A stretch of 63,389 nucleotides of DNA, filler included, from Perkinsus chesapeaki ATCC PRA-425 (GCA_013115145.1; 9 parts of 9 records of this genome joined end to end with filler, not necessarily neighbours in it), one strand, 5' to 3'. Shown: positions 2,680 to 52,717, counted from the first letter of the whole stretch. A program made the numbers and translations. The notes: generated from the sequence alone by a model not told the origin.

Positions 2680-2725
2680 GGCTATCGATCGCCTGATCGA
2701 CGCGATTTTATGAAAGCGCGCGCCC
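2680..2725 (-). promoter_or_regulatory. Candidate ribosomal-protein promoter module (GGGCGCGCGCTTT-N21-CGATCGATAGCC in RPS9 sense)
   Basis: 36/46 gap-free identity to 52672-52717 upstream of RPS3. Lies in the 199-nt divergent gap between RPS9 and the FAM136A-like gene. Confidence 0.7.
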
Positions 2726-2833
2726 TGGTGATCGACTACAAACGCACGGGGTATCCGAGGTTGAAGCGTGAAAGATTCACTATAGGTCAATTGGAGGCCT
2801 CCCAATCAGCCTTTTTTTTGTTCTCTACCAGCA

Positions 2834-3778
2834 ATGAGTGACGAATTCCGTAATGCGCAAAGCGACCTCAACGCCAAGGCGGAGAAGTTGGCCGATCTCA
2901 TTCAGACACGACTTCTCAAGGTCGGCAGAAAAGTCGCCGTTCAGACCGTCAAATGTGAGTTATCGATCACCATTCACTAATAATCAATCTTTATAATAAC
3001 TTTGAAGCTCAATACGCCCTCTGAACTGTTTACCGAGCAGTATGTCAGGTTTCGATGACAACGGTGAGGACTACAAGGCAGTCGAGCGATGTCAGCAAGA
3101 TGCAGCTCAACCTGCTATGAGGTATGTTGGAGTGGCATATGCTACCATACCTCAATTAGCCGAGATTCGCCTTGTCAAATCGGCAATGCAGCGAAGATAT
3201 TTGGACAATTTTCCTCGAAATTTTATCACCCTTGCGAACTCATGTTGTCTCGAGCACGTGCATATCACTAAGCCGTCTAAGAAGATGAAAACGAGCAAAT
3301 CGGTAAAGTTCCGAAGATTCCTTTATTCGTTTTACTGTTACTCTCAATGAGATTACTCCACACAGTATTACTCCCAGCTAATCCATAAACGAGTTGGTTA
3401 GCTTGGAATGTATTGGAGACGTCAGACTGTCTACCGTTATCTTCCTCAGATTGCAACAAGAACTCCAGCATGACTCTCAGGCTGTCAGCAACATGATTCA
3501 GTCTTGCGTCAATGCTTGCATGCCTTCCAGTGCCAGCAACTCGGAGGTATTTATCGCGTCGAGTGGAGCCAAACATACATAATCGATCAAAAATACGTTG
3601 CTGCTTTTCGCGTCGTATGGTGGTCATATTTCAGTTGATGGCGAACCCGGATACAAGAAAGGCTGTCGAGGCCGAGTTTGACCGCTGCGCCGCGAAATGT
3701 GTTCGTGACGCGATGCCCAAGTTTGACCAGCTCGAGAAGACTAGTTTGGCGAGCATTGATCGTGTGGCAAAGGAGTAA
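2834..3778 (+). CDS. FAM136A/DUF842-like small Cys-motif helical protein, multi-exon
   Basis: MSDEFRNAQSDLNAKAEKLAD...VKCMSGF...VERCQQ...IQSCVNAC...FDRCAAKCVRDAM...; paired CxxxC helices as in FAM136A; GT-AG introns. Family assigned from memory. Confidence 0.7.
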
Positions 3779-4030
3779 GACACCCATTAGTTGCTTTTTC
3801 GATACTGTAATTCTCAATTGTTGGTCAATTCGGTCACTTCTTCGCCGAACCAAGTGACAGTAACGCGACGCTCGGGTACTTATTGGTGCCACATAGCTTC
3901 CCACTTCTAAGCGGGGCCTTGTCGATTCCGGGAGAGAACGGCACGACGTAAATTATGTCATCCTGAGAGATGGATTCGAAATATTAAGTTAATTCGGAGA
4001 AAGGCCGGGCACCCGTGATAGTGGGGAAAG

Positions 4031-4076
4031 CATAATTTTCGATTTGTCAATGACAAATCGAAAATTATGATGTCAT
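4031..4076. repeat. 19+1+19 perfect palindrome followed by TSD remnant (candidate transposon excision footprint)
   Basis: CATAATTTTCGATTTGTCA a TGACAAATCGAAAATTATG, then a + TGTCAT. TGTCAT repeats the end of the left arm plus the complement of the central base. Confidence 0.85.
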
Positions 4077-4819
4077 CATTACGAGGAAGCTTCTATTGCG
4101 TCGAGTATTAATTGCTGCCACCTAAACGTTAGAGGAAATGCGAATCTGAACTGCGGCTTGCGATTTTGACACCTCCAAGGTCGAGACGGAGGATCGGGTT
4201 AAGGCGGCGCTGATGAGATACAATCGCTGTTGTATATCAAGAAATAGCCATTGAGCTCTTGAACAGAAGTGCAGTCCTCACTACCGGAATGAAAGTCCAC
4301 GATTAACCGCGCGCAACAACACCAAAGTTAGTTGGCTCGCAACTGAACCACGCTCCATTCGTCGAGTTGCGCATGCCTACTTTTACAGCATGCGATGAGT
4401 CAGTATTGATGACACTACACAAGTTGTTTAACACAAAATACAAAAGTAAAACCTACCCCTTGACAGGTCGCAATTGTCGTCGGACAAATCGGAGAAGTGT
4501 TTGACGTACAGTAATTCCTTCCAGTGAGAACTGAAGCTGAGTCGTGCGGGTGCAAGGACGATAATAGCTATCAATACCAATGACAGCCATTGGCCGTCAT
4601 AGTCTCAGTCATTAAATTACTCAGATTATAATGGCCAGGCTGTACTACGAAAGAATGGATTTCCTAGCCAACTTGAACTACACAGTCTACAGAAAGATAC
4701 ATAGTAACATCATAATGAGGTCCTCATTGACATACAAGATGCGACTCACCACCGAAAAGTGTGCCGTGTGTAGGCATCTGTCGCGCCGAGCGCCGAAACT
4801 CGTTATTCATTAACAGCTA

Positions 4820-4841
4820 CTAAGTTGAACTTAGTAAGTTC
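4820..4841. repeat. Exact 22-bp hairpin-type footprint, inferred TSD CTAAGTTC
   Basis: CTAAGTT g AACTTA g TAAGTTC. Confidence 0.85.
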
Positions 4842-5063
4842 CGCAACTCGAGCCTAAATTAGTTGGAGAGACAGTTCGAGCCTGTTCTGTAGCGTCTGAG
4901 GAAATGTTTTGAAGAACGCCGAATTAACATTATGTCAATAATACTGTCATTATCAACGCTACACTAATTGACCTCAACTCATCGGCGATCATCAGCAACA
5001 AAGACAAAGTTCACTATTAAGCATTACCCTCTCGGAAAATACATGTGGAATGTGAGAGCAAGA

Positions 5064-5085
5064 TGTCAGAGTCTGACAGTCAGAC
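5064..5085. repeat. Exact 22-bp hairpin-type footprint, inferred TSD TGTCAGAC
   Basis: TGTCAGA g TCTGAC a GTCAGAC. Confidence 0.85.
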
Positions 5086-5344
5086 GTTCTGACGAGACGG
5101 CATCGACGTTCTGTAAGACACTAAGGATATTACTTCATTGAGAAGCTATATCTCAGAAAATATCTGGATCTCAGGATTTCAATCTTAGAAATTCTGTATA
5201 GCTGGACGCCAGCTTTATAAAAATTTCACTAGGAAACTGCCAGGAGATGTGTACAGTTGGCGGTCCAATTACTGGACTCCAGTACTATCAGGCTGAAAGC
5301 CAGTATCGACGACGAGTTCAAAGATACAATTGCCTTGGAGCATT

Positions 5345-6301
5345 TCATCTGATCACCTTTTCCATAGTCCTGAGAGCATCCAGCCTACCGAATGGCATTG
5401 GAGCTTTGCCATCAAAACTTTTAACCCCAGGAGTACTAGTAGATATAATTATAGACTTGATTTCTTTGACGGACAAGGGGCGTGGGGCCACGCTTTTCAT
5501 CATGGCTATAACGCCAGCGACTATAGCAGCAGAACCCGAGGTTCCAGCGAAACTGTCATAGCCACCAGACAGAGTGGTACTGTAAACATTGGCTGGAGCG
5601 GCTACGTCCACAAACGGTGCATAGTTGCTCTTTGAGTGGAGGTTCATGCCAGCATTATCCGTACCAGACACACATATGATACCGTCCAACGTCTTGGAAT
5701 ACTCGCATGGGTAACTAGTTTCACCGGGAAGTGATACATTCTTACCACGGTTGCCTGACGCGCAGATGAGGGGTATATTAGCCTGAGTAGCCTTAGTTAT
5801 GGAAGCCTCAACGGCGGCATTCTTCGGTTTCCAGCTGGCAGATAGGATTATAAGATCGACCTTCGAATCAACAGCGTAGTTGATAGCGTCAGAAAAATGA
5901 CGAAAAGCTATCGTCCCATAAACGCGGATGGGCATCAACTTGATGTGATCTGCAACACCACTTATACCTTTATCGTTATTAGTGACGGCTCCAACAACAC
6001 CAGCCATTGCCGTACCATGACCTGTAGTATCTTGGGTGTCAGCATTCTTATCCATCACATTATATCCAGTTACGATATTGCTCTTGAGATCCTCGTGGCC
6101 AGCCTGGATGCCAGAATCTACGAGGGCTACCGTAACCTTTTTCTGGGAAGGTATCGAGCGAGCTTTGGCCCATGCTGCTGGTACTCTTACAGCCTGAAAA
6201 TACGACTTCTGATGTACTTCATAAAGAGGGTCATTAGGGTCAGCGTTCACAGCAGTACAAACCAAGTATACAATGGTGGAGGCAAATCCCATTGTCCACA
6301 T
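5345..6301 (-). CDS. Secreted subtilisin-like serine protease (S8), intronless; start at 6301 or 6292
   Basis: Hydrophobic N-terminus. Catalytic motifs VDSG (Asp), GHGT (His) and GTSG (Ser); oxyanion Asn in ASGN; DPNDPLY resembles the mature N-terminus of thermitase-type enzymes. Confidence 0.93.
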   Translation of the reverse strand: MWTMGFASTIVYLVCTAVNADPNDPLYEVHQKSYFQAVRVPAAWAKARSIPSQKKVTVALVDSGIQAGHEDLKSNIVTGYNVMDKNADTQDTTGHGTAMAGVVGAVTNNDKGISGVADHIKLMPIRVYGTIAFRHFSDAINYAVDSKVDLIILSASWKPKNAAVEASITKATQANIPLICASGNRGKNVSLPGETSYPCEYSKTLDGIICVSGTDNAGMNLHSKSNYAPFVDVAAPANVYSTTLSGGYDSFAGTSGSAAIVAGVIAMMKSVAPRPLSVKEIKSIIISTSTPGVKSFDGKAPMPFGRLDALRTMEKVIR

Positions 6302-6780
6302 ATTATCAAATTATTCAAAACTATTTAATGAACAGTATTATTGCGAAGATGGCGCTTGCAGCGCGAGGCCCAGCTCCCCGACGGGGTTGCAAGCGGACTA
6401 AAATGGAACCGTCTACAACCTGAGTAACTTAGGCTAAGTTGTCGGGAGTATCTATGGGAGCTGTAATTGAAAGTTCCTGTACTGACAACAGAGAGTAATC
6501 TCTTTGTTAACTCGAGTTCCCTCAAACTGGGAGTCAGCTGCATCTGAACTCCAGATTCTGAAGCCGTAGTGAGGTACTGCGCCGCGCGCATGGCCCCTGC
6601 CCCGGCTGTCTGTTTTCCCCAATACCCATTGATGACCTCGAGAGCGCAAAGTAGGCTCAATAACCTCTAAGAATGGTCAGTAGCAACCAGCTTGCTGTGT
6701 TTACAGAAGGCCAGGACGCCCGAGGCCCGAGGGAGGATTTTTTCCGGACCGCTCCGCGAGCCGAAACACACTAATATGGC

Positions 6781-6802
6781 AGATGGGGCCCATCTGATGG
6801 GC
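6781..6802. repeat. Exact 22-bp hairpin-type footprint, inferred TSD AGATGGGC
   Basis: AGATGGG g CCCATC t GATGGGC. Confidence 0.85.
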
Positions 6803-7032
6803 TCGATGACAGTCTTGTAATATAAACTGAGTGCCTGCGGTGCTACAGTCTAGCTATGGACTATTAGGGCGAAAATTTACCCCTGAGAGTTAATCTATCC
6901 CTACTGTGCTGCAGTACCATGCTATTCAATACCGTGTTGTTGCATGTGTGTTGAGGGAGCATTTAGGGCGGCGAACTCTCTCAATTACTGGATAAAATTT
7001 TCTTGGGCGACCTAACGATTTCCTTGAATTCC

Positions 7033-7054
7033 GTACCCTCAGGGTACTACCCTG
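7033..7054. repeat. Exact 22-bp hairpin-type footprint, inferred TSD GTACCCTG
   Basis: GTACCCT c AGGGTA c TACCCTG. Confidence 0.85.
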
Positions 7055-7331
7055 GAATTTCCTGGGGATTTCACTTGTGAAATCTCCCGTGTAAAGCCTT
7101 CTTTCGACCAGAAGGTAGTCAACCAACTGGCTCCAGGCCTGGCCCAGACCGCCTGGACTAGCCAGCCGGTCAGGAAGTACACAACTGCTAGCTGGCCACC
7201 GACTCGTTGCAGCGAGGTCTAGTCCAGATCCGTGTAAACTACGGCCCGGCGTCAGTGACCCTGTTCCAAAGCACACCTGAATGCAGGATACCTAATACTG
7301 ATTTTTGGCCTCAAACTGCTGAATGGTACTG

Positions 7332-7369
7332 AATTGTACTCTAAGAGTACAATTGTAAGTACTACTCTT
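7332..7369. repeat. Two-hairpin footprint, inferred TSD GTACTCTT
   Basis: AATTGTACTCT a AGAGTACAATT (11+1+11), filler GTA, then AGTA c TACTCTT. Confidence 0.8.
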
Positions 7370-7464
7370 ATTTATTAATAATCATACCACTACAACTATT
7401 TCGGCCAAAGCTCCTCTACGGGCTGACACGACCAATATTTGCATAACGAATCGGAGCGCCCTGC

Positions 7465-7486
7465 TTGATGACTCATCATTGATGAG
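7465..7486. repeat. 22-bp footprint with one mismatch, inferred TSD TTGATGAG
   Basis: TTGATGA c TCATCA t TGATGAG (second spacer expected a). Confidence 0.6.
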
Positions 7487-7778
7487 GCAACTAGCTGATA
7501 TAGTTGTTAATCAAATGCATCTTGAACTTCAATCCTTCGAGAATCTGTCGTGTTAGTTCACTTGGTGACCATGTCTTGGTTCACTTGCTTGGCTGCCAAT
7601 TTGACAGTGCCAAAATATTTCAGCTGTTACAGCAGTGCTGTATCACAGTGCTACTAGCCCTGCTGTATTAGCAGCCACTACTGTACTACCACGGTTTAAC
7701 TCTCATAGAGGGTCACGCCGTTTCCCAATTTCATCCTGCTGAAGGGTGTCCCAGAAGGTCTACACCTATCACAGGTGA

Positions 7779-7798
7779 CCTATAGAATAGGCTATTCT
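7779..7798. repeat. Partial footprint (one hairpin, other end trimmed), inferred TSD CCTATTCT
   Basis: CCTAT AGAATAG g CTATTCT. Confidence 0.5.
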
Positions 7799-8284
7799 CC
7801 CTTCCTCAAGCCGAACAGCGCTTCCTACAGGGACGCATCGTATCCTTATCCTATCGTATCGTATCCTAAGGGACGGCCATCAACAAAGTGGCCACACTTC
7901 GTGACACGAAGTTCTTTTCTCCTCTTTTTGTCACTACTTCGTGGCGTCGCTGGGTCATCCATCGTATTCATATGTTCCTATATGATGTTCATATGATGTT
8001 CCTATAGACAACTCAATGCCAAATGGAACGAAGTGAACAAGTCTTAAACAAGTTCAACTTAATAANNNNNNNNNNNNNNNNNNNNNNNNNNNNNNNNNNN
8101 NNNNNNNNNTTAATTAATTAANNNNNNNNNNNNNNNNNNNNNNNNNNNNNNNNNNNNNNNNNNNNGAATGCAAGCACAACATTGACCAGGGGACCGGGGA
8201 ATCTGAATATAATGCACACGCATATCACTGTCATACGGCTATAATCTAATTGAAATAAACTGCATCATCCGAAACTGCACCACT

Positions 8285-8404
8285 AGGGAAAAGAGAGGGA
8301 AGAGGAGGGGGAAAAAGGGGGAAGAAAAAAGAGAAGAGGGAAAAAGAAAAAAGAGAAAAAGAGAAGAGAAAAAGAGATGGAAAAAAGAAGAAAAAAGAAG
8401 AAAG
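8285..8404 (+). repeat. ~120-nt polypurine (A/G) tract
   Basis: Only A and G apart from one T. Confidence 0.85.
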
Positions 8405-8552: not shown

Positions 8553-8584
8553 GAGAAGAAAACATGTACTTTTGGTACCAAAGC

Positions 8585-16831: not shown

Positions 16832-17066
16832 TTACACTTATATTTGCATATAATTTTAGTATTGCCAGCCTAATTGAAATAATTATATTACGCAACACTC
16901 AGTTCATAATAAACAGCTTTCGCTAAGTTATTGAATACGTTGTTGAAACAATCGTGATATCACAGACCACCGTTACCATCATCTTCACGATTGGTCGGTA
17001 TAAAATGATATGTTGTTACTGTTGTTGGATTTATTAATGGTAAATATTAATAGGTACAAGTGTAGA

Positions 17067-20000
17067 CTACTGTAATGCTGGTCTAATATTATGTACTAAG
17101 ACTCTAGCAGCCATTGTACGATTACCAGTCTGTACATGTAATGTTGCTAGATTATATGCAGCAGCTACTCTTATATATTCAACTTCATCCTCTACTTGTA
17201 TATTATTATTCCTAGCTTCTTCTATAACTTTTAATGCCTCTCTATACAATCTATCAGCTAAATGGAACACAGATAACTGATGCCATAGTCTTCCTTGATT
17301 ATATGATATCTCAGCCTTTGCCAACACTTCTGTTACACCACATTGGTGGTGTTGGTGATGGCCTTGTTGTTCTAATCTTAATCTCTCATATAATTGGAAT
17401 ACTGCTAAACCTATTTATAATAATAAGTAATACTACTATCACTATCACTTTTATTACTACCTTTTGTTATAGTTAATTGCCTATCATAAGTTACTCTAGA
17501 TATTGACATTGTAATAAGAGATGCTGTAAGTAATAATGCAGGATATGGATCATTTGGTCTTAATCGCATTGCTCTATAATACTCTCGTACACTATATCGA
17601 TGTCTAAATATTATCGATATAAATACTACCAAATTAATACTATTAATTATTACGTTTGTGCTAAGGTACTTAAATGCCCTAACATTAATGTATATTCATA
17701 TACTTGTGGATGCTTAATTGCTTGTCTAATAAGCCATGCTCTTTGATCAATAAACTCTAATTGATCTGGTTTAGTCCCCCTTCTCATAGTGGTCTTCCCT
17801 TTAACTTCGTCAGAATGAACAGAGAACCCCTACCAATAACAACAACAGCAAGTGATATATATGTATTTAATATATTATTCTTACAGCTTCCTCTTCACCA
17901 GCGGCAGTATCATAGAACATAAGTTTCGATAAGAAGCTAAGTGTGCGTGATAATGTTGAATAATCCTTCTCATGTGCATTATTAACAGCCTAATAATAAT
18001 ATCATCATCATCACCAATACTTCTTACCCTTCTCCCCTTACCCTTTGACGAAGATATTTAAATACAACCTTCCTCATACGTGCCTTTATAGCAAGATTAA
18101 AGCTTGCCTTCTCTAACCGTGATATATTATCTAATCCACTGCCAACAACAGTAGCATTGTTGTTGTTGGTGTTATCAGTATCATCAGCACCAGTAGTAGT
18201 CATAATGGTCGGATGTAGTACACTAATCTTGTCAGTTGCCGTAGTAGTAGCAGATGAACTAGTAGTATCAGTAGTAGGTGTATTACTACTAGACCATCTC
18301 TTACGACGCGCATGAAGTACCTGATACTTGACTAATTAAGCACCAATGGTCTGTAATGTTGTTGGCGGTGGTGCTCTTGCTATTCATACCGTTTCAATAA
18401 TCTCTACAGCTTCCTGTTCTCTACCAACAAGATGGCATACATAAGAGCCTCTAACAATAAAGTCAACTAATGCTTTATCACCGTATATATCATCAATTGC
18501 CAATAATTGCATCTCCTTTTTAATACGTGGTAATGCAGGCTAAAAACCATTATACAATAATATTAAAACATTATACCTTAATGTATCATCATCATCATTA
18601 CTACCATTCCCTCCTTAGCTTTAGCTTCTGCTACTGCTTTTGGATCATTACGTCCAAAATTAATAAGGGGTGTTAAACCACCACCACTACCACCACCACC
18701 ACCTTGTTGTTGTCTTGGTGTAGTTCCACCACTAGAACTACTCCCTTTATGTACCTTCTTACTTGGACTAGTAGGATGTGTGGTAGTATTTGTATTAAAG
18801 TATTGTGGATATTGACTACGTCGATACTAAAAATAATACTATTAGTATCATCATTTATTGTATATTCATTATAATACTCTAGAAGCACGTTGATTATCTA
18901 ATTCACAATCCCTCATTAGACTTATCCATGCTGATGCAAATCTAAATAAGTTTATATACTACAATGCTTATGATTACCAGACAATACTACTACTTTAACC
19001 TTTTATCCTGTACATCTGGTGGAATGTCATTATTATCATCGTCATCATCATTATCTACTTGTAATTCACCACTATCCAACATATTCAATAAAGCAGTATA
19101 TCTAATAATAATATGTAATATGCTACTATTACTTATTATTATTATTATTATTACGCTGCTTTCCTTTCCTTAGTACTATGTGCTCTAGGTAAACTTCTAC
19201 ACATTAATAAATCCTCATAACTTAGACTCTCTAATAATAGCCTATCAGCATCTGCACTTCTACCAAGTCTACGCCAAATATCAGATAATTGTACCAATAC
19301 CTAGACATCATCATCATCATACCATTTCTAACTAACATACCATTATTACTGTAGGATCATTCTGTGATATATCATTATCCCTAGTAACACCGCCGCCCCC
19401 AATACCACCACCAGCAGCAGCACTTGTTATATCATCATTAGGATTCCATGATTCTGCTGCTGCTGCTGATGATCTAGCAGCATTAATAGCCTTAGTCTCT
19501 ACTGCTCTCTCTAAGTATATCCCTGCATTCTCTATATCACCAAGAGCATAATAATAACTAATAATATATAATAATACTATTACCAATACCATAATGCTAT
19601 TACTTTCCTATTCTACCACATAATGTTTTAGCATGTACTGGATCAATAACCTTGCCTGGTTGTGCTAATGCTACTAATAATTCTAATGCTTCTTTAGTAT
19701 GACCATTATCATGCATAGCATCAGCTAATTGTAAATGTAAATCCTCTAATCCTGTTGGACTTTGACCTACTGTTCCACTTTAACAGCACCCATAACCACC
19801 GCCCATAACCTCCTATATTACCTCCATTATCTTCCATCTCTTGTGCTGCTGCCATTAATAATACTCTACAGCATGCCTTGGCTAATACACTAGCAGATAC
19901 CTCCTTCCTCCCTATAGCCAATGCCTCTTCTGTAGTCCTGGCTGACTGTGCTGCTGCTGCAGCAGCTGTTGTTGATGATGATGTTCCTATTATAGCATTA

Positions 20001-21853: not shown

Positions 21854-21999
21854 AAGACGTTTATGATAAGGGTTATAATAATTAAACCCCTTATACAGTC
21901 TTACTTATTACTCAACTAAACATTGATATGAGTAGTAGTATAATTATACAATAGTTATGATTGTACATTAACAACATGTTACACAAGTAGGAGGAGGGG

Positions 22000-23249: not shown

Positions 23250-23259
23250 GCTTTACGTT

Positions 23260-23288
23260 AAAAGCGCTCGCCCATAGCGTGATCGATT
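23260..23288. promoter_or_regulatory. AAAAGCGCTCGCCC motif plus GTGATCGA upstream of RPL4
   Basis: Reverse complement of the RPS3 motif GGGCGAGCGCTTTT; about 75 nt upstream of the RPL4 ATG. Confidence 0.65.
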
Positions 23289-23347
23289 TTGTCTAATAAT
23301 AGTTGCAGGTGAGTTTCTCCTTTAAGGTAATTAGACCTCTGTCAACG

Positions 23348-24535
23348 ATGTCCACCGCTCGGCCCGTCGTATCAGTATACGATCTATCCGGATCATCATC
23401 TAGCACTACCTGTGCTCCTACCGTCTTCCAGGCCCCTCTCAGACCTGACTTAGTCAGATCTGTCCACTCCGCCATGGCCAAGAACAAGCGTCAGGCTCGT
23501 GGTGTTAAGTTCGAGGCTGGTTATGAGACCGCTGCTGCCTCTTGGGGTACCGGTCGTGCCGTGTCTCGTATTCCACGTGTACCTGGTGGTGGTACCCACC
23601 GTTCGGGTCAGGGTGCCTTCGGTAATATGTGCCGTGGTGGTGGTATGTTCGCTCCTCTTAAGACTTGGAGACGCTGGCACCGTAAGTCTAACTTGACTGA
23701 GAAGCGTCATGCTATGGCATCTGCTATTGCTGCTTCTGCCTTGCCTCCACTTGTTATGGCCCGTGGTCATCGTATTGGTGAGGTCCCTGAGCTCCCTCTT
23801 GTTGTTGCCCAGGGTGCCGAGTCTGTTCAGAAGACTAAGGAGGCCGTTGCTGCTCTTGAGGCTCTTGGTGCTGGTGCCGATCTCCAGAGAGTTAAGGACT
23901 CTAAGAAGGTTCGTGCTGGTGCTGGTAAGATGCGTAACCGTCGTTATGTTATGCGTCGTGGTCCTCTTGTTGTATACTCTGAGGATGATGGTCTTACTAA
24001 GGCCTTCCGTAACATCCCCGGTGTTGAGCTCTGCCAGGTTGATCGTCTCAACCTCTTGCAGGTTGCCCCCGGTGGTACCTTCGGTCGTTTCATCATCTGG
24101 ACCCAGCCCGCCTTTGACCGTCTTCAGCAGCTCTTTGGTTCTTATAGATCCAGTGCAGCTCTTAAGACTGGTTACAGGCTTCCTAGACCTTTGATGACTA
24201 ACGCTGATATCGCTAAGATCATTAACTCTGAGGAGGTCCAGTCTGTCTGCCGTCCTGCTCTTGCTCCTGCCCGTCGTGTTGGCCAGAAGAAGAATGCTCT
24301 TAAGAACCGTCAAGTGATGGCCAAGCTCAACCCTGGTGCTCTTCATCGCGCTAAGCTGCGCGCTCAGGCCCAGGAGGAGGGTACTCAGGCTCATGCCCAG
24401 AAGGTCGCCGCCATCCGTGCCCGTGCTGAGCAAGCCAAGAAGAGCTCCAAGGTCGGTAAGGTGTTCTATGATGAGTTGACTGCTGCCTATCATCCCGCTG
24501 CTGACAGCGAGTCTGAGGCCGAGTCCGAGGAGTAA
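23348..24535 (+). CDS. RPL4: 60S ribosomal protein L4 (uL4), intronless
   Basis: MSTARPVVSVY..APLRPDLV..AASWGTGRAVSRIPRVPGGGTHRSGQGAFGNMCRGGGMFAP..RRWHRK; true ATG at 23348. Confidence 0.98.
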   Translation: MSTARPVVSVYDLSGSSSSTTCAPTVFQAPLRPDLVRSVHSAMAKNKRQARGVKFEAGYETAAASWGTGRAVSRIPRVPGGGTHRSGQGAFGNMCRGGGMFAPLKTWRRWHRKSNLTEKRHAMASAIAASALPPLVMARGHRIGEVPELPLVVAQGAESVQKTKEAVAALEALGAGADLQRVKDSKKVRAGAGKMRNRRYVMRRGPLVVYSEDDGLTKAFRNIPGVELCQVDRLNLLQVAPGGTFGRFIIWTQPAFDRLQQLFGSYRSSAALKTGYRLPRPLMTNADIAKIINSEEVQSVCRPALAPARRVGQKKNALKNRQVMAKLNPGALHRAKLRAQAQEEGTQAHAQKVAAIRARAEQAKKSSKVGKVFYDELTAAYHPAADSESEAESEE

Positions 24536-24663
24536 TTTTAATACGACGAATATCTGTATATGAGGTTATATAGGTATAAGAGCGTTTGGTAATACTGATA
24601 GAGGAATGCTTAATGTTGTTGTGTTGTATGTTGTATTAAGGGGGAAGTAGTATTACATCACGA

Positions 24664-35269: not shown

Positions 35270-38200
35270 TATTATCGCCGTGGTCTTCTCTCTGGTTATG
35301 CTGATGTAGCAAACAAGCATTATGCCTCAATTTTATATGCTCCCGAATTAGCCTGTGAAGTAGATAGGTATTGTCGTATGAACCATATAAGAGTTGTTGG
35401 TCCTACGCCCAATCGGCGGACTAATGATAATAAGTCCAATACTTTGTCCGATTCTACTCCTGGTTTTATGTTAACTCCTAAAGAGTTTGAATATGTTCGT
35501 GCCAATCGGATATGTTTTTCATTTGCTAAATATGGCTCTTGTAATCGTGATGAATGCGCGTTTAAACATGTGTCTCAGTCTCAGGTCAAAGAGGCTGTTG
35601 CGTCAACTCCCGAAGTTGCTGGTCCATTGTCGACATCTAAAACTTCGCCCTCTACTGATTCGACTTTGACGACTCATAAAGTATGTCATGACTCCACAGA
35701 GCAGAAGCGAACTCTCAGGAGTTATGACCTTGGTGACTTGTTCATCGAGATCGACACTGGCTGCAGCACATCTATAATTTCGTCTCATGCCTTCGAAGTC
35801 CTGTCGGAGTCCAATTTGGTTCGCGATGTTGTGAGCGTTGATCAATCATTTAGTACTGCGTCCGGTCCTAATGCTTTACACGCAAACAAGCGTGCTTATG
35901 TAGAAATATCGGTGTATGATATTAATAATGTGGCACATAAGCTGGTTTGGCAACCTTATGTGGTCAATTCGGTAATACCTCAATGTGACGGGTTATTCGG
36001 CAAAGATGTGTTATTATTCGGTGACAGAGGCTTGGAAATTTTATTGGCAGATGGTGCGTATGATCTGGCCCTTTTTTGGTGTTCACGCACTGATGTTATC
36101 GAGTGCCAATTTACGTCACCAGTGTCATCCCCAGATACGTCGGTCAGTTCATTAGGCGAAGATGGTAATGATGTTTTATCCGACGGTGCTATGACATTGC
36201 AAGCTGATATAGATGTCCCGGACTTCACGACAACAACCTACAAACTTCCTGATGATCCTATAGATCACGTGATTTATGATGGTGTTTGGTATAGGATAAG
36301 TGTTCAGCGGAAAGGAGATGGTTCCCGCTATTTTCTCTGTGACTTTTCCACGGAGTTTGGTGAGTGGTTGGACCTNNNNNNNNNNNNNNNNNNNNNNNNN
36401 NNNNNNNNNNNNNNNNNNNNNNNNNNNNNNNNNNNNNNNNNNNNNNNNNNNNNNNNNNNNNNNNNNNNNNACTCTCTACCAATGTCGCCGGTACCGAAGG
36501 TACACTGGAAGTGGGCTAAAGCCGAAGATATCTGCCGTAAAGAATGCACTACGCAATTGGAGAAGTTCGTGACCGGTAAGAAGCTCGTTCCTGTGCAACA
36601 TGTGCGCAAGAATCTGTTTCGTAGCAATTTTTATGGTGTTGCGGGTCGGAAAAGACATCGTGTGGTTACGCCTCTATTGCAGCTTAATAATGCTCTACGC
36701 CCTGCTATCACTAAGTACAAATTGCCTAATCCTCAAGGTCGCATCACTGCAGTAATGCACAGACTGCGCTGTGCAGAATGCGCTTATTTGTTGGATGTGC
36801 GCGATGCGTACATGTGTATACGATGTGGTGAAGTGATGGCCAGTAAGCTGGAAATTTGGTGGTATCACAGTGGTTTTTCCGTATGGAGATTTTTATATTT
36901 AATATATGGGAGCTCGGTGGCTCCACTAACCCTGGAGTTATGTATGGCGTATTTGGAACTCCGTTGCCCAAAGCCACTTCCTTGTAATGGTTTACCCAAA
37001 CCGGCTACTTTCATGGATGATATTGTACGACCTTGCCATATTACTGCTGACTCTAACGTGTGTGATGATACTATAGCTGTTTATGCTAACCATCAATTTA
37101 CACTTACTAATGACCGTTTATGTTCGGATCGATATGTAACGGCATTGGGTACTAATGTTTCTCTCGATTCTATTACTTACCGCCAAGACAAGTATGCGAC
37201 TGTCTGCGAGCTTGTTCTTCCCGATACTATATCCTATCGTCGTGGTTTAGAGGTCCTTGGATTGATAATTAACGAACCTGATTTACTTGGTCTGCATATT
37301 CTTCCGGTAAAACATGCTCTTGTTGGTTTACTGTCCCATTGGCGACATATGAATGATGCGAAATGGGATCAACCGGTTCCTTTAACTTTGTTCGACCTTA
37401 TAAGAGAATGGCTTAGTTTAGTAGCCCTCTCACCACTACCTGTAGTTCCAAGACGTATTGATATGACTGCTGCATTTGATGTGTATACTGATTCGTCCAG
37501 ATCGTTACAATGTTATCAAATCTTTCAAACAAGTAATGTACCAATAATGTGTGAACAATTCACAATAAGTGCCTCTGAATCTCATTTTCATATTAATGTA
37601 CTTGAACTGTCGTCGGTTTGGCGAGCTCTTACTCGATTACAATTGCTCTGTTTGGATACTGCTTTATCCATAACATCTGTAGTTACAGTTCATGTAGATT
37701 CTAAAACTGCACTCAGTATTCTTTGTAGTCATCGTGTCCCGAGGGGACCTTTCCAAGCTTTGTATCAGAAGTATTTAGATTTGATCCAAATTGCTGGGCT
37801 CGGGCTCCACTTGCAATATGTGTATGTTGCATCGAAGGAGAATCCTGCGGATGCAGGTACTAGATGCGAGTTATTGGGTAGAATCCATTCAGTACGCGCT
37901 CAACTTGCTGATAATTCCCAAGAAGATGAACAGGTTATGGCGGTTCGACGACGCTCAGAATTCGATGATGATAACGAGTCTCCTTTGGTACGACGGTCTG
38001 CCCGACTTGCTAAAAAGCGACGAACTGATGAAACTGATATCGCAGAAGATATNNNNNNNNNNNNNNNNNNNNNNNNNNNNNNNNNNNNNNNNNNNNNNNN
38101 NNNNNNNNNNNNNNNNNNNNNNNNNNNNNNNNNNNNNNNNNNNNNNNNNNGTCGTGATGAAGATGACGAGGTCAACAACAAAGATGCTTTGGTAGATGAG

Positions 38201-39346
38201 GATGAGATCTTGTTCAACTATATTAGACCCGATTATGATTTTGTACCATTGGCTTTATTTGATGATGACCTTCCGGCACCAATGTACCTATCAGATTTGA
38301 ATGGTTATATAACTAACATTGAGATTGTTGATGTCACTGATCCAGCCCAACAATTACGTCTGGCCTCTATTGGGCATAATGTTGCTCACGAGTCTGATGA
38401 TATTGTGTGTGATCGACTAAGGAAGTTTTATCGATGGCCAAATATGAAAGCTACTATAACCAAGGCTGCTCAACTCTGTGAACCTTGTAATCGTACCAAG
38501 ACTCGTCCTAACGATTGCAAGTTCAAACAAATTCCTCATGTTCCAAGATTGGTTCCTATTCCTTTTCATAAAGTGGGCATGGATGGTCTAGGTCCTTATG
38601 GTTCGGTATATGTACTCACGTTAACCGACTATTTTACAGGTTATATAATGGTTCGGGTGACGATGGGTGCCCCTAAAACCCATGATGTTCGTCAGCTAAT
38701 AAATCATGTTTATCGGGTATTTGGTATGTTTCCGAGAATTGTGAGATCTGATAATGCTTCGATTTTCCAATCTGCTGCTAAGGACTTTCCTGGATTATGG
38801 ACGTTCAGCCCAATTCATGGAAGCCCTTCTAATGGCTTGGCTGAGAGACGACATCGGGATATAAATCAAAAGCTACGACGACTTATGCTACAAGGAGTTG
38901 CTGGCACTGATCTTATTAGTTGGTGTGATATATTAGATAAAGTATGCGGCGAGATGAATAATGCGCCTGTTAAGCGAGCTAAAGGCTTATCCCCTACTGA
39001 TGTGCTTATGTATTATCCGTGTACTAACCTTCTGACTGGAACTAATCGTCAGCAAGATCCTGATCGGCATGTTGTTTGGTCTAATTATAGGGCGGATTCG
39101 CTAAAGACGAATGCCCAAAGAATTGCTGTGGCACATCAACAGTTGAAAATTGGTCAACAAGTAATGGCACGGATTAGCCAACCCAATTCTAAGTTGTCTC
39201 CACGTTATAACCCAGCGGTGATAACTCGTATTTTGGGCCCTAATCGTGTAGAATTAGATAACGGGTCGGTTGTTCATTCCCGCGATTTGAAGATTCTACA
39301 ATCATTACTTGTTGAAGAAGTTGAAGATGATGTTGAAGAAGAATAA
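35270..39346 (+). mobile_element. LTR retrotransposon gag-pol (PR-RT-RNaseH-integrase order), 5'-truncated by the contig edge, two internal N gaps
   Basis: Protease DTG; RT LDVRDAY..FMDD; RNase H VYTDSS/HINVLEL/VHVDS/NPAD; integrase H-x3-H..CxxC, GMDGLGP, SDN, NGLAER. Frame is open from the contig start. Confidence 0.93.
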
Positions 39347-39680: not shown

Positions 39681-39692
39681 CAGTTCGGGCAA

Positions 39693-45994
<6,302 letters not shown>

Positions 45995-46088
45995 TTTCAT
46001 ACCGCTCTTTTCTCTGATCATGCCTCTGTTCCTTTGTCACTGTCATCATCGTCGGCCTTAAAGGCTACTATTAATAAATCGATTAATC

Positions 46089-46102
46089 GGGCGCGCGCTT
46101 TT
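46089..46102 (+). promoter_or_regulatory. Fourth copy of the GGGCG[A/C]GCGCTTT motif
   Basis: GGGCGCGCGCTTTT preceded by AATCGAT, between the CDPK 3' end and the next gene. Confidence 0.55.
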
Positions 46103-46609: not shown

Positions 46610-49600
46610 ATGATGATAGCAATATTACAGTTTGTGCCAAATTGTGTTGGTAAATAGTCGGCTTGTTCAGCCTTCAGCAGCGTCTCTGTGGCCACCACTG
46701 ACAGCGCTGCTGTGGTTGATCAGGTCTCTGGCCACGAGAGTGCCACCGTTCATTTCGAGGATAGTTTAGAAAAGTTTGGTATGACAGTACCGTCGACTCC
46801 GCAACCGTCCTTGCCGATCGATCGAGTAGCTTCATCGTCATCAGCGGACTCGCCGACAGACGCGCTTTTGAGAGATCTGAGAATCCATGAGAAAACTGGC
46901 GATATGACACCCGCAGCGGCGCTGGCGTTTTCTCATCACGGCGTGGAGGCGCACCACGGCGTGAATGACGGAGGCAGCAGCACGCCCATGATGGTCACAA
47001 CGCCACGGATGAGACTTCGGAGCAATGGAAGTGAACAGGAGCTTCTGGGGGCGGCGGTGGCACCAAGTACAGTGAGACCGAAGAGGATAACGAGGATACA
47101 TAGCATGCCATCTGAATCGTAAGGGAAGGGACATTCGACAAAAATGCGGTATGAAAGCGTTTACGTATTTCGTTTTTCTTATTTTTTCACTTTCTTTCCC
47201 CAGTTTTTCCAATTTTTTCCCCATTTTTTTCTTTTTTTTCCAATTTTTCCAATTTTTGTTATTTTTTTTCATTTTCATCTTCCTACCTTCACGTTTCCTC
47301 ATTTTTCTTCCCTCCTTCATACCCTACTAATCCCTTAAATAAATACTGTCTCGTTAATATTTTCCTGCGGTTCATTCTGAAGAGAGGGAGATTTGTGTGA
47401 ATTTGTGTCTGGTTTCGGTTGCTATAGCGGTTTGTTGAACTCATTCGTTGGTAGACAATATTTCGGTGCAATTTTCTGCTACGAAATGTGAAATGATTTC
47501 CTCTGTGGAGAAGTATCGTAACTTCTTTCGACTCAGCGGAATTCATTTTCGGTCGCTTCCGTCCTTGCTTTGCGATTCCTCCACCAGAAACTCTCGCTAA
47601 GATCGTTCGGAAAATTTCCTAAAATATTCCAACTATAAGTTTGATAATTGTTGTATTTTAAAATGTATCGTTTTGTTAGGTATAATGTTTACCAAGCTCC
47701 TATGTTCCATCAATTGGTGTTGAAACCATTCTATCAAAGGCACCCGATCTCGAACGTTGTTATGGGCCTCGTTATGGGCACGTCGACGTAAGCAAGGAAG
47801 GCCCTTATGCAGAAATTTTGTGGAAAATTTCGGGAAAATCTGTATTTTTTGTGTCTACTGTTACATTGTTGATTCTTTTTTGCGAAATTTTCGAAAATCG
47901 CTGAAATCACCTCTCCATTCCAAGATGATCCTTGGGCGCTCTCTGCAACTCCCCTGTGTTGAGTTGCGTTTTCAGATACGCTCGAACAAGCATTCGCGAG
48001 GGTGTTGGTAAAATAATAAGATTCCCTCATCTGCACTGTGGAGGATTCATATTTATACCAAATCCAAAGTTCCACGAGGATCCGATCACGGTTGCTGTGA
48101 TGGCGAATAATTTGCGAGAAGGTCGAGGTAGGCAGCTTGTAGTTGATATGATGATTCTTGGACCACGAAAATTTGTAAAGTTCTCGCTCGAATCGGTGAT
48201 CTTTTTTGACTGGTTTGGTCGGCTTGACGCTTGAACCAACAGCACTGTGTGAAGGGGACAGCTTTCGGTCACTCAGTAGTACCGAAGTTTCGTATTGTGT
48301 TACTCCGACCGAGAAGCAATGTATGGAGAGGAAGGCAGCCTTTCGGATTCGGTTATGTCAGGTTTTGAGACTGGCTCCTTTCGGTTTGTCGTTTGGTGGA
48401 TACCTGAGGAACTCTGGTCAAATGTGGAAGAGTGGGTGGATAAGGCAAGCGAGGAGAGGACCTCCGACATAGCAGCAGCATCAGCTGGTAAGAATTATGT
48501 GGCGCGCGGTCATTTATGGTGTTGGTGCATGATCTCATGAAGTGCCTTATGGATATTGGCAGGCGCACCAAATTCAATGGAAATTTCATCGCGAGAAATC
48601 GTAGTGTTTTGGTGTCTACAGTGTTTCTAACAGACATTGTTGTTTAATAGACATATAACTGGACATATTTTGACATGATCATTTCATCCAGATTTGATAG
48701 GTATTAGTAGCGCATCACCGTGTCCATTTTTACTGTGTACTAAATCCTCTTTAGGTGTTGCACGTGAAAATTGTAGCTCGGAGAGATTGAGTGATTATGA
48801 CGTAAGTGGTTTTGGCAGGCATGTCAGGCTTACAAATGGTATTGTTAGTTTTCTGGTATTAATTCATTTGACGATATTCCAACACCAGTCGGCGCGCCCG
48901 GTGATTTCCGGTTCAGTGACGTGCCTAAGCCTGGTGATGATAGGTAGGTCGGTTCAGAGCGGAAATGGAAGTCCATGGCAATCTTCTGTGCAAGAAATCA
49001 TATTTTCGGCTCCTTTAGTGGCGGCAGCACTCTGTTACGATTTTCGGCTGATAGTCGCATCGGTGGTGCATTGAGATATTTTTGATGGGGATAGTTGTCC
49101 GGTTTACCTTTACTGTAGCTAGGAGCATCGGGTAGCGTGGGTCTATTTAAACTGGCGGTAATTAGGTTTATTAAGTCTTATTTACGATAAGTGTTGTCTG
49201 GTGGAGATCTTAGTTAATTTAAATTAATAACGCTCTTCAACTTACAATGCCTTGTAGCCTAGTAGTTTGCCGATAGACAGTCGAAGGTTAAAACGGTAGC
49301 TTGGGTATTTCTCGTGAGTATCCCCCTTTGGTTTTCTTGTGTGAATGAATTATCCTTCTTTTATAATTATCAGTTATCTTCATACATATCGAGATCTCGA
49401 TTCTCCTGTCCATGCGGAAATGCTTCGGCTCCTGCTTGATGAGTGCCAGCAATTTTTGGTGTCCTTGTTGGGAGATCAATTCATTAGCGGAGCGAAGCTC
49501 AGTATGGGTTTTCACTATCCTGTCCGAACGCAGTATTCGACACTGCATATGCAGGTGAGGAAGGGTTGATATTTAGAGAGCGAATCTTTGGTTGAAGCGT

Positions 49601-51569
49601 GCATCGATGACCTTGTTTTTATTTGCTGAATAGCCAGAAACATACATAGTGGTTCGGCGCAAACTGCAGAAGATCGTTCTCAAAGACGCCCTTTGAAAAT
49701 GTGGGGACACGAAAATATGCACTTACCCACGTTTCGAGCTTGTTAGTATTTTGAGGTGCGGCAGCCACTTCAGACCCCCTCGAGATCTACTTCCCTCCAC
49801 GGAGTTCAGAACCACGTGGTTGATGAACTATGCCGTGTGTGGTTCTTCTATTCGGTTGGCCGTATAGTGATCGTTTTTAGAGGCGCTCACGGCATTTTTC
49901 CAAGTTTTGCGATCACGTCTTGCATGGTTTTGTGTGCTGTAGGGCCACTTTGGCACCCTAGAATGGTAAGCGGTGTAAAATCAATATCGTTGTTTTTTGC
50001 TTAACCTTGTTTGATGAGGATATTTAACCCATTATAAAGAGTTTCTCATTTTGAACCGGAAAAGTTATCCCAAAGAACCTAATTTGCATGAAGATTTGAC
50101 TCGCGCTGTGAAGCACATTTGATCTTCCCATCGTCTATTCTCAGATTCGAATAAATTCTGGTGATGTAGTTAGTCGAGACGGGCGTGGTGTGGCTGCCCA
50201 GCATGTCCTGGCTGTGTTGGAGAGAGACCCGCTGCACTACGCGAGGGATAACATGCCTTTAAGGTGGGACATGCATTTATGACATCATCGAGAAGTATTA
50301 TACAAATACTGCGGAGGGAAACCTTATAACGAGAAATATGCGCGTATGCTATCCTGATAGAAAATTGGAGCAAAAGTTGGTATGGAGCTTTACCTGCGTT
50401 TTTCGGAGCACTTTTTCGGAGCTTGTTTCCTTCAAAGAGAAGAAGCTGGACGAGATCTTCGTCGAGATTTCTCCACTGAGAATTACCAAGATTCAGCGCA
50501 CTGCAGAAGCAGCACTACTTTATTATTCTCAAGTGTCGCTAGGATTCGCCGAAACGTCGGGAAATTTTCCCCGAAATGTTGTCTTCGAGTCTGCTACTGG
50601 AACTGGCGACCATGTTCTGCTTTCAGGTACGAAGTGACGGAGAACATCAAGATGAATTTGCTAGCAGCAGCCGAGTGTGATTCTTACGGGAATCGTGGAG
50701 GAGATCATCGCACCAATCGAGGATCGAGAGGGTATTTCTTCAACTGCGTTGGACTTGGACAGTAAGAAGGCAACTCGCAATCGAGGGCGGTCTCGTAACG
50801 TTTTCCACGTCCCTTTGGTCGCTTTATATCAGCCACAGTGATAGCCCAACTGTATCGGACAGCTGTCGGGCACAGTGCGTCTACATTGAGCATCATTATT
50901 AGAGCTTCATTCTTTAGTGTACAGTAGTAGCTCTAAGAGCTATTAGATCTACTCGAATGCTCATTTAGTAGCTCTATTGCTAATGGAGCTAAGCTGCTGC
51001 TGTACTACCACTAAGACCATCATTATATAATCCTTGTCGGTGTCGTTGCTGGTGTATTTTCCTCGCGTCGTTGCTATGGAGGCTGGGTCATCGCGTTGTG
51101 TATTAGCGATACGCAAGTGACAATATTATAATGCTTGGACTTATAACGTCTGACAATGGGGATTCCGATGGTTTCCCCGCCTAGCTTTTGAAATCGAGCG
51201 GAAAATCGGGACCGTTTTCGAGAAGTCGTTGAATACAACCTAAGGCTGGCTCGGCTTTGATAAGCTCACTTTCATCTTCAGTATCTTGTCTTTACAATTA
51301 AAGTGAGTTGATATGGTATAGAACGTTATATAGATACGAGTTGCTGCTCGGAGGAACTGAGTGTGATGAAGGTGGAGAATATGGATGTGACACCACATCG
51401 ATTAACGTTGGTGAAGCCTCGGAAGAAAGTCCTTGGATGTGCAAAGGCGATGACGATATATTCGAAAGGTGAGTGCATGCTCCTCAGTTGTGGAATGGAT
51501 TTTGAATACCCCTTGGATGATCCGTTGTGCTTTTGGGATCGAGCGACATGGTTTACGGCGTTCGAATGA
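46610..51569 (+). CDS. Large multi-exon gene of unknown function (approximate)
   Basis: Ser/Thr-rich N-terminal exon (46671-47118) and many GT-AG-bounded open segments to ..FWDRATWFTAFE*; no domain recognised. Confidence 0.55.
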
Positions 51570-52425
51570 CGAACAATAATTCTAGGTTGCCACACGTTTG
51601 TTTTAGTGGATATAACAAACCGATGTCCACGATAGCCGAAGGTTCAGTGACAAGTTTAGAAGATTCCTGTCGAGAAGATCACCCTGGAAATCGAGCTTCA
51701 ACCTAAGATACTCCAACTGGGCGAAGTAGCCATTTTTTGTATTCATGTGAATGTATGATGATATTTGCCTTTATTCTCTGCTCGTCTGTTACTGTGTAAT
51801 GGTGACTGCGGCAGACATTCTGTTTAATGTCGTCAATTCTGCCGACGGTGGCAACCACTGAAGATACCGTCTCATTGTTGTTGTTTACTATTATCATATT
51901 GCTAGCCAGTAGCCCTCGCGATTAGTTATGCTATATTAGTACCATTATTATTAAATAAGATTCGTTATTGTTATTATCACTGTCGAAAGCAGTGCCATCC
52001 GGTAGAGCGAAAGTGCTGCGTTGATAGTTAATTGACATCCGCAAAATCAGCGAATGATATAACGAAGATGCGCTTGATTATACACAACGAGGCGTACTGC
52101 GGATTTCGTACTACTTTTGGTGTGATTGCGCCGCATTCGGTGCGTATGACTGCGCATTTGAACATTGGCATGAATCTTACTTCCATGCGATAAAAGTGTC
52201 TCAGTTGTACTGTAGGAGAAAGTTCAATATGAAACATCTACGCAGGTGTGGAATAGAAAGTCTCGTTAGAGGCCAGGGTCAATAGGCGGGTAGGTGGTTC
52301 GAGAGCGGGCGCGCGCGCCCACTGGNNNNNNNNNNNNNNNNNNNNNNNNNNNNNNNNNNNNNNNNNNNNTTAATTAATTAANNNNNNNNNNNNNNNNNNN
52401 NNNNNNNNNNNNNNNNNNNNNNNNN

Positions 52426-52606
52426 TAGTAGCAGTTATCTAATCATAATAACAATATGTTATTATGGTCATAAGACCGTCGTATTTATCATCATTATAAT
52501 AATAACACAATTACTTATTCAGTGAGCTGGGTTTAGTAGCAGTTATCTAATCATAATAACAATATGTTATTATGGTCATAAGACCGTCGTATTTATCATC
52601 ATTATA
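52426..52606. repeat. 73-bp perfect direct repeat, period 108
   Basis: 52426-52498 identical to 52534-52606. Confidence 0.9.
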
Positions 52607-52671
52607 GTTCAATAACATTATTAGTCCCCCCCCCACCACATCCCCCTTACTCTGACAGCTCTTTTATTTTT

Positions 52672-52717
52672 GGGCGAGCGCTTTTTTGAAAACTGATCGA
52701 TTAGACGATCGATAGCC
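52672..52717 (+). promoter_or_regulatory. Candidate ribosomal-protein promoter module (GGGCGAGCGCTTT-N21-CGATCGATAGCC)
   Basis: Collinear with the RPS9 upstream block; ends 34 nt before the RPS3 ATG. Confidence 0.7.

Follow-up and report, generated by a model that had tools for sequence, protein, structure and literature searches.

The window analyzed here, a stretch of 63,389 nucleotides from the shellfish parasite Perkinsus chesapeaki ATCC PRA-425 (GCA_013115145.1) in which nine contigs are joined end to end with filler, contains the ribosomal-protein genes RPS9, RPL4, and RPS3, located on three different contigs (1, 2, and 6 of 9; Table 1). As the initial annotation had stated, these are the only ribosomal-protein genes present, each with a copy of a GC-rich box upstream: when 221 pieces of the 243 ORFs of at least 70 aa were searched against Pfam, a search that genes made of shorter exons alone could escape, only S4/S9, L4, and S3 were found. 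The RPS9 open frame comprises 188 codons plus a stop, and introns 1 and 2 of this gene terminate in CTGTTTCAG. Divergently oriented to it is a DUF842-family gene, presumably FAM136-like; a 96%-identical contig shows a spliced leader attached to this gene near position 2806. RPL4 lies at a strand switch: on its left, the minus strand carries a TPR-domain frame, and about 130 nt past its stop codon begins a JmjC gene without the motif upstream.

Table 1. Genes and sequence elements in the window
Feature	Position	Strand	Remarks
RPS9 (uS4) coding region	1891..2634	-	Four exons; Pfam S4 and Ribosomal_S4; joints from a relative's contigs
Inverted repeat GTCGATC-AGGC-GATCGAT	2684..2701	-	7-bp arms, 4-nt loop; right half of RPS9 module
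GC box GGGCGCGCGCTTT	2713..2725	-	Within the 199 nt separating the divergent RPS9 (-) and DUF842 (+) genes; box start 91 nt upstream of RPS9 ATG
GTGATCGA	2728..2735	+	Opposite flank of RPS9 GC box, facing DUF842 gene
Divergent partner gene, DUF842 family	2834..3778	+	144 aa; expressed, spliced
GC box GGGCGAGCGCTTT	23261..23273	-	Inverted relative to RPL4; near-left edge 87 nt before RPL4 ATG
GTGATCGAT	23279..23287	+	Single half-site upstream of RPL4
RPL4 (uL4) coding region	23348..24535	+	One open frame; Pfam Ribosomal_L4
Inverted repeat ATCGATC-ACGC-GATCGAT	42198..42215	+	48-nt kinase intron; ends 20 nt before AG
Inverted repeat ATCGATC-GTTT-GATCGAT	44477..44494	+	Kinase intron; ends 13 nt before AG
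Fourth GC box; ATCGAT lies 5 nt beyond the GGG end	46078..46101	+	Intron between exons 45739-45849 and 46730-47119 of kinase gene model
GC box GGGCGAGCGCTTT	52672..52684	+	Starts 80 nt before RPS3 ATG
Inverted repeat ATCGATT-AGAC-GATCGAT plus AGCC	52696..52717	+	Right half of RPS3 module
CTGTTTCAG, inferred spliced-leader acceptor of RPS3	52717..52725	+	Identical RNA contig begins at AG (52724)
RPS3 (uS3) coding region	52752..53522	+	One open frame; Pfam KH_2 and Ribosomal_S3_C

Read in gene sense, the 46-mers upstream of RPS9 (2725-2680, terminating in AGCC) and RPS3 (52672-52717) are identical at 36 of 46 positions without gaps, have a 21-nt spacer in both cases, and end 45 nt (RPS9, ATG at 2634) and 34 nt (RPS3, ATG at 52752) before the start codon, as originally described. 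The second-best ungapped match on either strand of the whole window reaches only 25/46 with the RPS9 query and 24/46 with the RPS3 query. The GC box at the left end of the module, GGGCG[AC]GCGCTTT, occurs exactly four times in the window, at the three ribosomal-protein genes and at 46089-46101 (+), and allowing up to two mismatches added no further copy in the whole window. Its expected count is 0.0009 to 0.0025 under Markov models of orders 0 to 5, the same order as the earlier estimate of about 0.004, and no match appeared in 200 local dinucleotide resamplings. A test that presupposes no motif gave a consistent picture: the three 100-nt ribosomal upstream regions have a 13-mer in common (at most one mismatch, either strand), a length that 1,586 triples drawn at random from these three contigs, and likewise 712 shuffled triples, never reached.

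The full 46-nt module is found at two of the three ribosomal-protein genes only. At RPL4 the core is inverted, as claimed previously, and is a GC box copy on the minus strand, with an exact 15-mer in common with the RPS3 box. The word GTGATCGA lies 5 nt after the RPL4 GC box; a further copy adjoins the RPS9 box on the far side. In either orientation, the start of the GC box is 80 to 91 nt from the ATG at all three ribosomal-protein genes. This similar distance despite the RPL4 inversion fits a DNA site, not an RNA site. A TCGA word is located 43 to 65 nt before each of the three start codons; in RPS9 and RPS3 it is doubled to an inverted repeat, 21 nt from the GC box, which makes up the right half of the module. 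The pattern TCGAT-N6-ATCGA occurs four times in the window (shuffle mean, 0.075; maximum, 2 in 200 shuffles). Folding of the three upstream regions was no better than that of shuffled sequences (z scores of -0.37, 0.15, and 0.15), neither Rfam at gathering score nor a tRNA search returned any match in the window, and a bacterial promoter scan of the RPS9 spacer, of no relevance to a eukaryote, gave none either.

RNA contigs and sequences from a relative bear on where the module lies with respect to the transcript. At RPS3, a 100%-identical RNA contig from a leader-carrying library begins at the AG 7 nt past the module, and this start likely marks the leader acceptor rather than the transcription start. 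None of the near-identical RNA contigs on RPS3 or RPS9 covers a module, a weak observation that rests on contigs from 6 of 11 runs; the 11 public runs all consist of contigs, none holds half of the RPS3 words, and four were compared on RPS3 and four on RPS9. For the RPS9 5' end, the near-identical runs yielded no contig matching the gene, and that of the relative stops in adapter at 2637. Downstream of GTGATCGAT, candidate acceptor AGs lie at -45, -39, -34, -21, and -13 from the RPL4 ATG. The ribosomal-protein genes are trans-spliced, a point missed by the initial annotation, and some of the module may therefore belong to the transcribed outron and not to the promoter; this applies to the right half in particular, since trans-splicing needs an outron.

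In a relative whose RPS3 coding DNA is 89 to 91% identical, the last eight bases of the module (52710-52717) are all retained at the same 34 nt from the ATG, while the next stretch matches at only 8 of 22 bases, a background at which an 8/8 footprint has a P value of about 3e-4. This comparison spans 30 letters, and the GC box lies beyond the visible stretch. The footprint is not alone in being conserved upstream of RPS3, as the 12 bases directly before the ATG are retained too. At RPS9, a second, low-depth contig from the same run as the relative's RPS3 contig aligns solely over 2698-2735, which covers the GC box and GTGATCGA, and is unlike the P. chesapeaki sequence immediately beyond; the piece is deduced from depth and loose-end tables, its orthology is putative, and a similar short low-depth piece that likewise continues into unlike sequence ends at 3071.

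Counterexamples to a purely ribosomal distribution come from the introns of one calcium-dependent kinase-like gene, which hold one of the four GC boxes and two of the four inverted repeats. The intronic GC box is identical to that of RPS9, and these introns also carry 11- to 12-base words identical to sequence upstream of RPL4, together with other recurring modules. Among four candidate gene starts that are neither ribosomal nor divergent, none has a GC box or TCGA word within about 150 nt, their positions being approximate.

Collectively, these findings point, on balance, to the GC box and nearby TCGAT words upstream of the three ribosomal-protein genes being a promoter module for strong, shared transcription, which we regard as somewhat probable. 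A sequence-specific transcription factor would recognize the GC box in either orientation, and the palindromic TCGAT repeat would provide a second site, probably a dimeric one, close to or at the transcription start. ApiAP2 proteins are candidate factors by analogy only. In the RPS9 spacer, one box would serve two divergent genes, with a TCGA word of its own facing each; a bidirectional promoter has been demonstrated in P. marinus (bioRxiv 10.1101/2021.06.11.447996, in part). An AG lying a few bases farther on (52725 for RPS3) would then accept the spliced leader on the primary transcript, and the mature mRNA would thus lack the module. The proposal of a functional cis-element upstream of ribosomal-protein genes gains support from the shared distance to the ATG, the retention of its RPS3 3' end in the relative, and the location of the modules outside the RNA contigs. 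The further designation as a ribosomal-protein regulon is not established: it concerns three genes, copies occur in kinase introns, and the RPS9 GC box is held in common with the expressed, non-ribosomal DUF842 gene, which it also faces, serving both equally well.

That last arrangement is also what would be expected if the box belonged to promoters in general wherever transcription starts are strong or divergently arranged, possibly heading same-strand clusters resolved by trans-splicing, with the ribosomal-protein genes being simply the strong genes of this window. RPL4 likewise sits at a strand switch, and Toxoplasma TRP-2 is found well beyond ribosomal genes (PMC11358496, in part). However, all three non-intronic GC boxes adjoin ribosomal-protein genes, one per gene, and the 246 nt by which the contig extends to the left of RPS3 contain no divergent neighbor; we consider a general element possible but unlikely. 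A different division of labor would leave the GC box as a DNA site and have the right half act as RNA, as a 7-bp outron or intron hairpin that sets or strengthens a nearby 3' acceptor, for the leader and for some cis introns. The excess of TCGAT-N6-ATCGA over shuffles is in line with this, as are the positions of three of the four repeats, which end 12, 13, and 20 nt upstream of an acceptor AG, whether known or inferred, the retention of sense-strand pairing via G-U at both arm differences between RPS9 and RPS3 (14/14 cells paired), and the folding of the 48-nt kinase intron (z score, -3.18). The pairing comparison, however, involves two sequences with no two-sided change and a powerless shuffle control (500/500), and because ATCGAT is itself palindromic, any tandem pair folds. 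RPL4 and the DUF842 side carry a half-site only. ATCGA or TCGAT occurs in the last 45 nt of only 6 of 34 introns (a count that omits RPS9 intron 2), a frequency that also led us to reject a general signal for branch points or splicing. Counting each word pair once, the enrichment close to the AG falls short of significance (6/22, P = 0.11; uncollapsed, 8/24, P = 0.024). An RNA hairpin thus appears improbable. Much the same doubt applies to a combined scheme, in which a single module couples initiation at the DNA box to trans-splicing through an outron hairpin at fixed spacing; in this sister lineage of dinoflagellates, the scheme would extend from ribosomal promoters to other strong ones, many of them bidirectional.

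Finally, the shared words could be nonfunctional and have been dispersed through repeats or by short templated insertions. The identity of kinase intron sequences to the RPS9 box and to RPL4 upstream words is what such copying would produce, and it may well be the source of the three intronic copies. As an account of the whole pattern it is very improbable: it leaves unexplained the similar distance of the box before three ribosomal ATGs on three contigs and the conservation in the relative amid diverged flanks, and the sites fit neither an excision scar nor a spliced-leader relic. A 22-bp hAT-type excision scar, X[1-7] + revcomp(X) + X[2-8], requires 7 to 11 mismatches of 14 at seven motif sites and was rejected. 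A spliced-leader relic of a retrogene was likewise rejected, as the best matches upstream of the ATG, 10 to 12 of 21, are within the background of random 100-nt windows (at least 10 in 1,157 of 1,500 and at least 12 in 142 of 1,500).

Wider searches returned no second occurrence of the module. A metagenome scan for the GC box followed by 15 to 27 nt and CGATCGAT gave 68 loci, none Perkinsus-like or ribosomal and none with a 21-nt spacer; these were attributed to chance, as they had no tblastn match to the three ribosomal proteins and were mostly GC-rich. An RPS3-based search of viral contigs gave 59 pattern matches, of which none was confirmed. No published description of the module was found in a literature search that covered few subscription journals. 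Three motif strings had no match in the six supplementary files of PMC7200600, and the word "motif" is absent from the accessible main text of the P. marinus promoter paper (bioRxiv 10.1101/2021.06.11.447996). The Perkinsus module would be a further member of an already-known kind, that of the ribosomal-gene motifs of apicomplexans.

For transcription initiation in the dinoflagellate lineage, the elements proposed so far are a TTT(T/G) 4-mer and a few unconfirmed words (PMC5029490 and PMC5585692, in part). Perkinsus stands at the base of this lineage, with trans-spliced mRNAs, normal nucleosomes, and retained AP2 domains of apicomplexan type, and its promoters have so far been used as whole upstream fragments. 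A compact conserved element 35 to 90 nt before the ATG would be the first concrete Perkinsus promoter sequence to test, and it would help locate transcription starts hidden by trans-splicing. If it is merely one more lineage-specific ribosomal motif, it would be useful but unsurprising.

Among elements described elsewhere, the proposed dinoflagellate core promoter TTT(T/G), at -50 to -100 (PMC5585692 and PMC5029490, in part), resembles the T run that ends the GC box 68 to 79 nt before the RPS3 and RPS9 ATGs, although a 4-mer is too common to discriminate. RPS9 has TTTC, the run is inverted at RPL4, and the Perkinsus element is far longer and CG-rich. Drosophila DRE/DREF and BEAF-32 CGATA sites are similar in being clustered palindromic ATCGAT-centered words near housekeeping and ribosomal starts, but BEAF-32 sites have at least three CGATA within 100 bp versus one CGATA per Perkinsus module, and in so distant a lineage the likeness is an analogy only (PMC12549938, in part). 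A DRE/BEAF-32 site was rejected, as GATCGATA matches TATCGATA at 7 of 8 positions at best, once per module. To our knowledge, no factor homologous to DREF or BEAF-32 has been described for the Perkinsus lineage.

Ribosomal-gene motifs are known in Toxoplasma, Cryptosporidium, and Plasmodium (PMC11358496 and PMC3734150, in part). The E2F-like motif of Cryptosporidium parvum also has a symmetric GCGC core and a T-rich flank and occurs upstream of ribosomal genes in either orientation; however, the E2F core [C/G]GCGC[G/C] is present in two of the four Perkinsus copies, excluding RPS3 and RPL4, and the T run follows the core (3') in Perkinsus but precedes it (5') in the E2F sites quoted (PMC3734150, in part). 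An E2F/DP site was rejected on these two grounds. TRP-1 was not seen in the three ribosomal upstream regions. The window has 18 GCATGC sites, all of them outside these regions, which therefore lack the TRP-2/AP2XII-8 site [T/C]GCATGC[G/A]. The module would extend the proposed turnover of ribosomal-gene regulators among alveolates (E2F-like, G-box, and TRP-2; PMC3734150, in part). The AP2XII-8-bound TRP-1/TRP-2 elements of Toxoplasma differ in that their sequence is unrelated, that the Perkinsus genes are trans-spliced, and that a factor and regulon are only putative in Perkinsus, but they are alike in placing two different motifs close together in ribosomal-protein promoters of an alveolate parasite, one of the pair being a palindrome that also occurs away from ribosomal genes (PMC11358496, in part).

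The 46-mers preceding RPS9 and RPS3, reported in the initial annotation as a common module, were confirmed to share 36 of 46 positions without gaps, ending 45 and 34 nt before the ATG, respectively; the runner-up ungapped match to the module on either strand of the window reached 25/46. Likewise, the 13-mer GC box that opens the module was found four times, as claimed (expected, 0.0009-0.0025; 0 in 200 resamplings), and no additional copy was present in the window at <=2 mismatches. Because the motif had been picked from these very regions, a motif-free test was run, in which the longest word common to three 100-nt regions was sought at <=1 mismatch. The ribosomal triple shared a 13-nt word, a length reached by none of 1586 random triples from the same contigs and none of 712 shuffled triples. 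Among 221 ORF pieces from 243 ORFs, Pfam analysis detected no ribosomal proteins besides S4/S9, L4, and S3. In the window, which consists of nine joined contigs, the RPS3 protein is 98% identical to P. olseni RPS3 and 91% to P. marinus RPS3.

Two separable parts make up the element: the GC box and one or more TCGA/TCGAT words. At RPS9 and RPS3, two copies of the TCGA word form an inverted repeat (arms of 7 bp, loop of 4 nt), which is the right half of the module. The RPS9 box is located within a 199-nt head-to-head spacer, across which the divergent DUF842 gene (144 aa) is expressed and spliced. On the far side of this box, 2 nt away and facing the DUF842 gene, lies GTGATCGA, which also follows the RPL4 box. 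With TCGA words on both sides, the RPS9 spacer thus holds one box with a TCGA word toward each of two genes. The RPL4 upstream element resembles a tiny CpG island, and most of its CpGs come from the motif itself. Contig 5 ends 6 nt beyond a perfect palindrome, GGGCGCGCGCGCCC, that resembles the left half of the GC box written twice; the palindrome lies past the last modelled kinase exon.

Positions of the element parts and of other features in the window
Feature	Position (strand)	GC box start before ATG (nt)	Closest TCGA word before ATG (nt)	Remark
GC box GGGCG[AC]GCGCTTT, RPS9	2713-2725 (-)	91	54	
GC box, RPL4	23261-23273 (-)	87	65	inverted
GC box, RPS3	52672-52684 (+)	80	43	
GC box, kinase intron	46089-46101 (+)			
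GCACGCATG	39861, 45362 (+); 44612, 46437 (-)			all kinase introns
GGTTCGANNCC	39978, 41910			weaker copy near 41539
AGCGGAGCGAAG	40390, 46183, 49486 (+); 40820 (-)			kinase introns
GGGCGCGCGCGCCC palindrome	52306-52319			
RPL4 upstream element	23250-23300			CpG-rich, o/e 2.3
AT-rich TPR-gene region	17001-23200			CpG-depleted, o/e 0.35
22-bp pattern X[1-7]+revcomp(X)+X[2-8]	4707-63071			24 sites at <=2 mismatches, 9 exact, as a raw count; 13/24 within 4707-7918
Retrotransposon-like open frame	35270-39346			long; integrase domains; broken by two N gaps
Tandem duplication, RPS3 contig start	52427-52607			near-exact, ~70 bases; possibly assembly artefact
T-rich acceptor-like tract	2801-2833			just before DUF842 ATG
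RPL4 stop to JmjC gene	24535-24664			~130 nt
Apparent close neighbour of RPS9	1800-1891			

The public data comprised 11 runs, all in the form of contigs and none with half of the RPS3 words, of which six were compared with the RPS3 or RPS9 contig. In organism C, a coded relative, the 5' end of RPS3 showed 20 differences from the window over 188 nt, and the contig extended 199 nt upstream. The 30 letters visible there start with CGATAGCC, at a distance to the ATG identical to that in the window, after which agreement falls to 8 of the following 22 bases (p about 3e-4); the AG of the inferred RPS3 acceptor belongs to these eight. A low-depth organism C contig also aligned to the RPS9 contig, stopping at 2735 and continuing with 255 unlike letters, and the depth table limits its aligned part to 2698-2735, that is, the GC box and GTGATCGA. 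Placed by the depth table and only putatively orthologous, this piece is weaker evidence, the more so as a similar short piece ends at 3071. The element is real, upstream, and partly conserved.

In X1, a coded public run, the DUF842 contig opens on a complete dinoflagellate-type spliced leader whose junction lies near 2806, so this library contains leader-bearing 5' ends. The X1 RPS3 contig, 100% identical to the window, has its first base at 52724, 7 nt downstream of the module. This base is the A of the AG within CTGTTTCAG, a 9-mer that also ends RPS9 introns 1 and 2. We infer a trans-splice acceptor of RPS3 at 52725, which would place the module outside the mature mRNA, and its right half may lie within the outron. 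Published accounts describe trans-splicing in Perkinsus as established (PMC3101222, PMC2868825, PMC9399869). At the DUF842 gene, the leader joins upstream of the T-rich tract, which is retained in the mRNA, and the window carries no AG immediately before the junction of this 96%-identical contig. Close same-strand neighbours with no motif between them were seen at RPL4, followed by a JmjC gene, and apparently at RPS9; these would be expected if the transcript is shared and resolved by trans-splicing.

The fourth GC box is intronic in the kinase gene, a single 30-exon model that makes up contig 5, with a P. olseni protein matching it throughout. ATCGAT occurs 5 nt from the GGG end of this box, as on the DUF842 side, and two of the four inverted repeats also fall in kinase introns, 20 and 13 nt before AG. 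The proposal of a ribosomal-protein element was upheld in part: the GC box stands upstream of 3/3 ribosomal genes, whereas the kinase-intron copies and the box shared with the DUF842 gene count against a ribosomal-only reading. Ribosomal specificity rests on three genes, against three intronic counter-examples.

Other words recur in the kinase introns. GCACGCATG overlaps the GCATGC core of TRP-2, a Toxoplasma ribosomal-promoter motif, at three of its four sites; GGTTCGANNCC is tRNA B-box-like, with no tRNA gene called; and two of the four copies of AGCGGAGCGAAG extend to a 32-nt, 88% match. The TCGAT word was rejected as a general splice signal, being present, in either orientation, in the last 45 nt of only 6/34 introns. 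Four candidate non-ribosomal gene starts carry neither the GC box nor the TCGA part.

On balance, we lean towards a promoter module, in which an orientation-independent factor site would be provided by the GC box and a second site near the transcription start by the TCGAT repeat, with spliced-leader addition a few bases downstream. Position, orientation, partial conservation, and the RNA contig start were observed, whereas factor binding, the start site, and co-regulation of these genes are predicted. A general element of strong or bidirectional promoters seems rather unlikely.

The right half could form a hairpin in the outron or intron, given that the RPS9/RPS3 differences keep pairing through G-U and that it lies near acceptors; however, the two sequences compared give no covariation in its favour and whole upstream regions show no folding signal, and we consider the hairpin improbable. 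That the shared words are non-functional copies is very improbable, though the intronic ones may be short copied pieces, and other recurring modules are present in the same introns. A spliced-leader relic and an excision scar were both rejected on testing.

No description of the element was found in the literature searched, most of it outside subscription journals, and the promoter module would offer an initial entry point into the promoter sequences of the Perkinsus lineage. Among known systems, RPS3 and RPL4 do not match the E2F core, and the T run of the Perkinsus GC box is on the opposite side; by their criteria, the element is neither a DRE nor a BEAF site. TRP-2 is absent from the Perkinsus ribosomal upstream regions, and Cryptosporidium ribosomal genes reportedly carry a different word, GGCGTCTC. 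The element matches none of the apicomplexan paired ribosomal-promoter motifs by sequence but would function like them. A bidirectional promoter has been demonstrated in P. marinus (bioRxiv 10.1101/2021.06.11.447996). Perkinsus has AP2 domains related to apicomplexan ones (PMC4117751), which makes AP2 proteins candidate binders, and no more.
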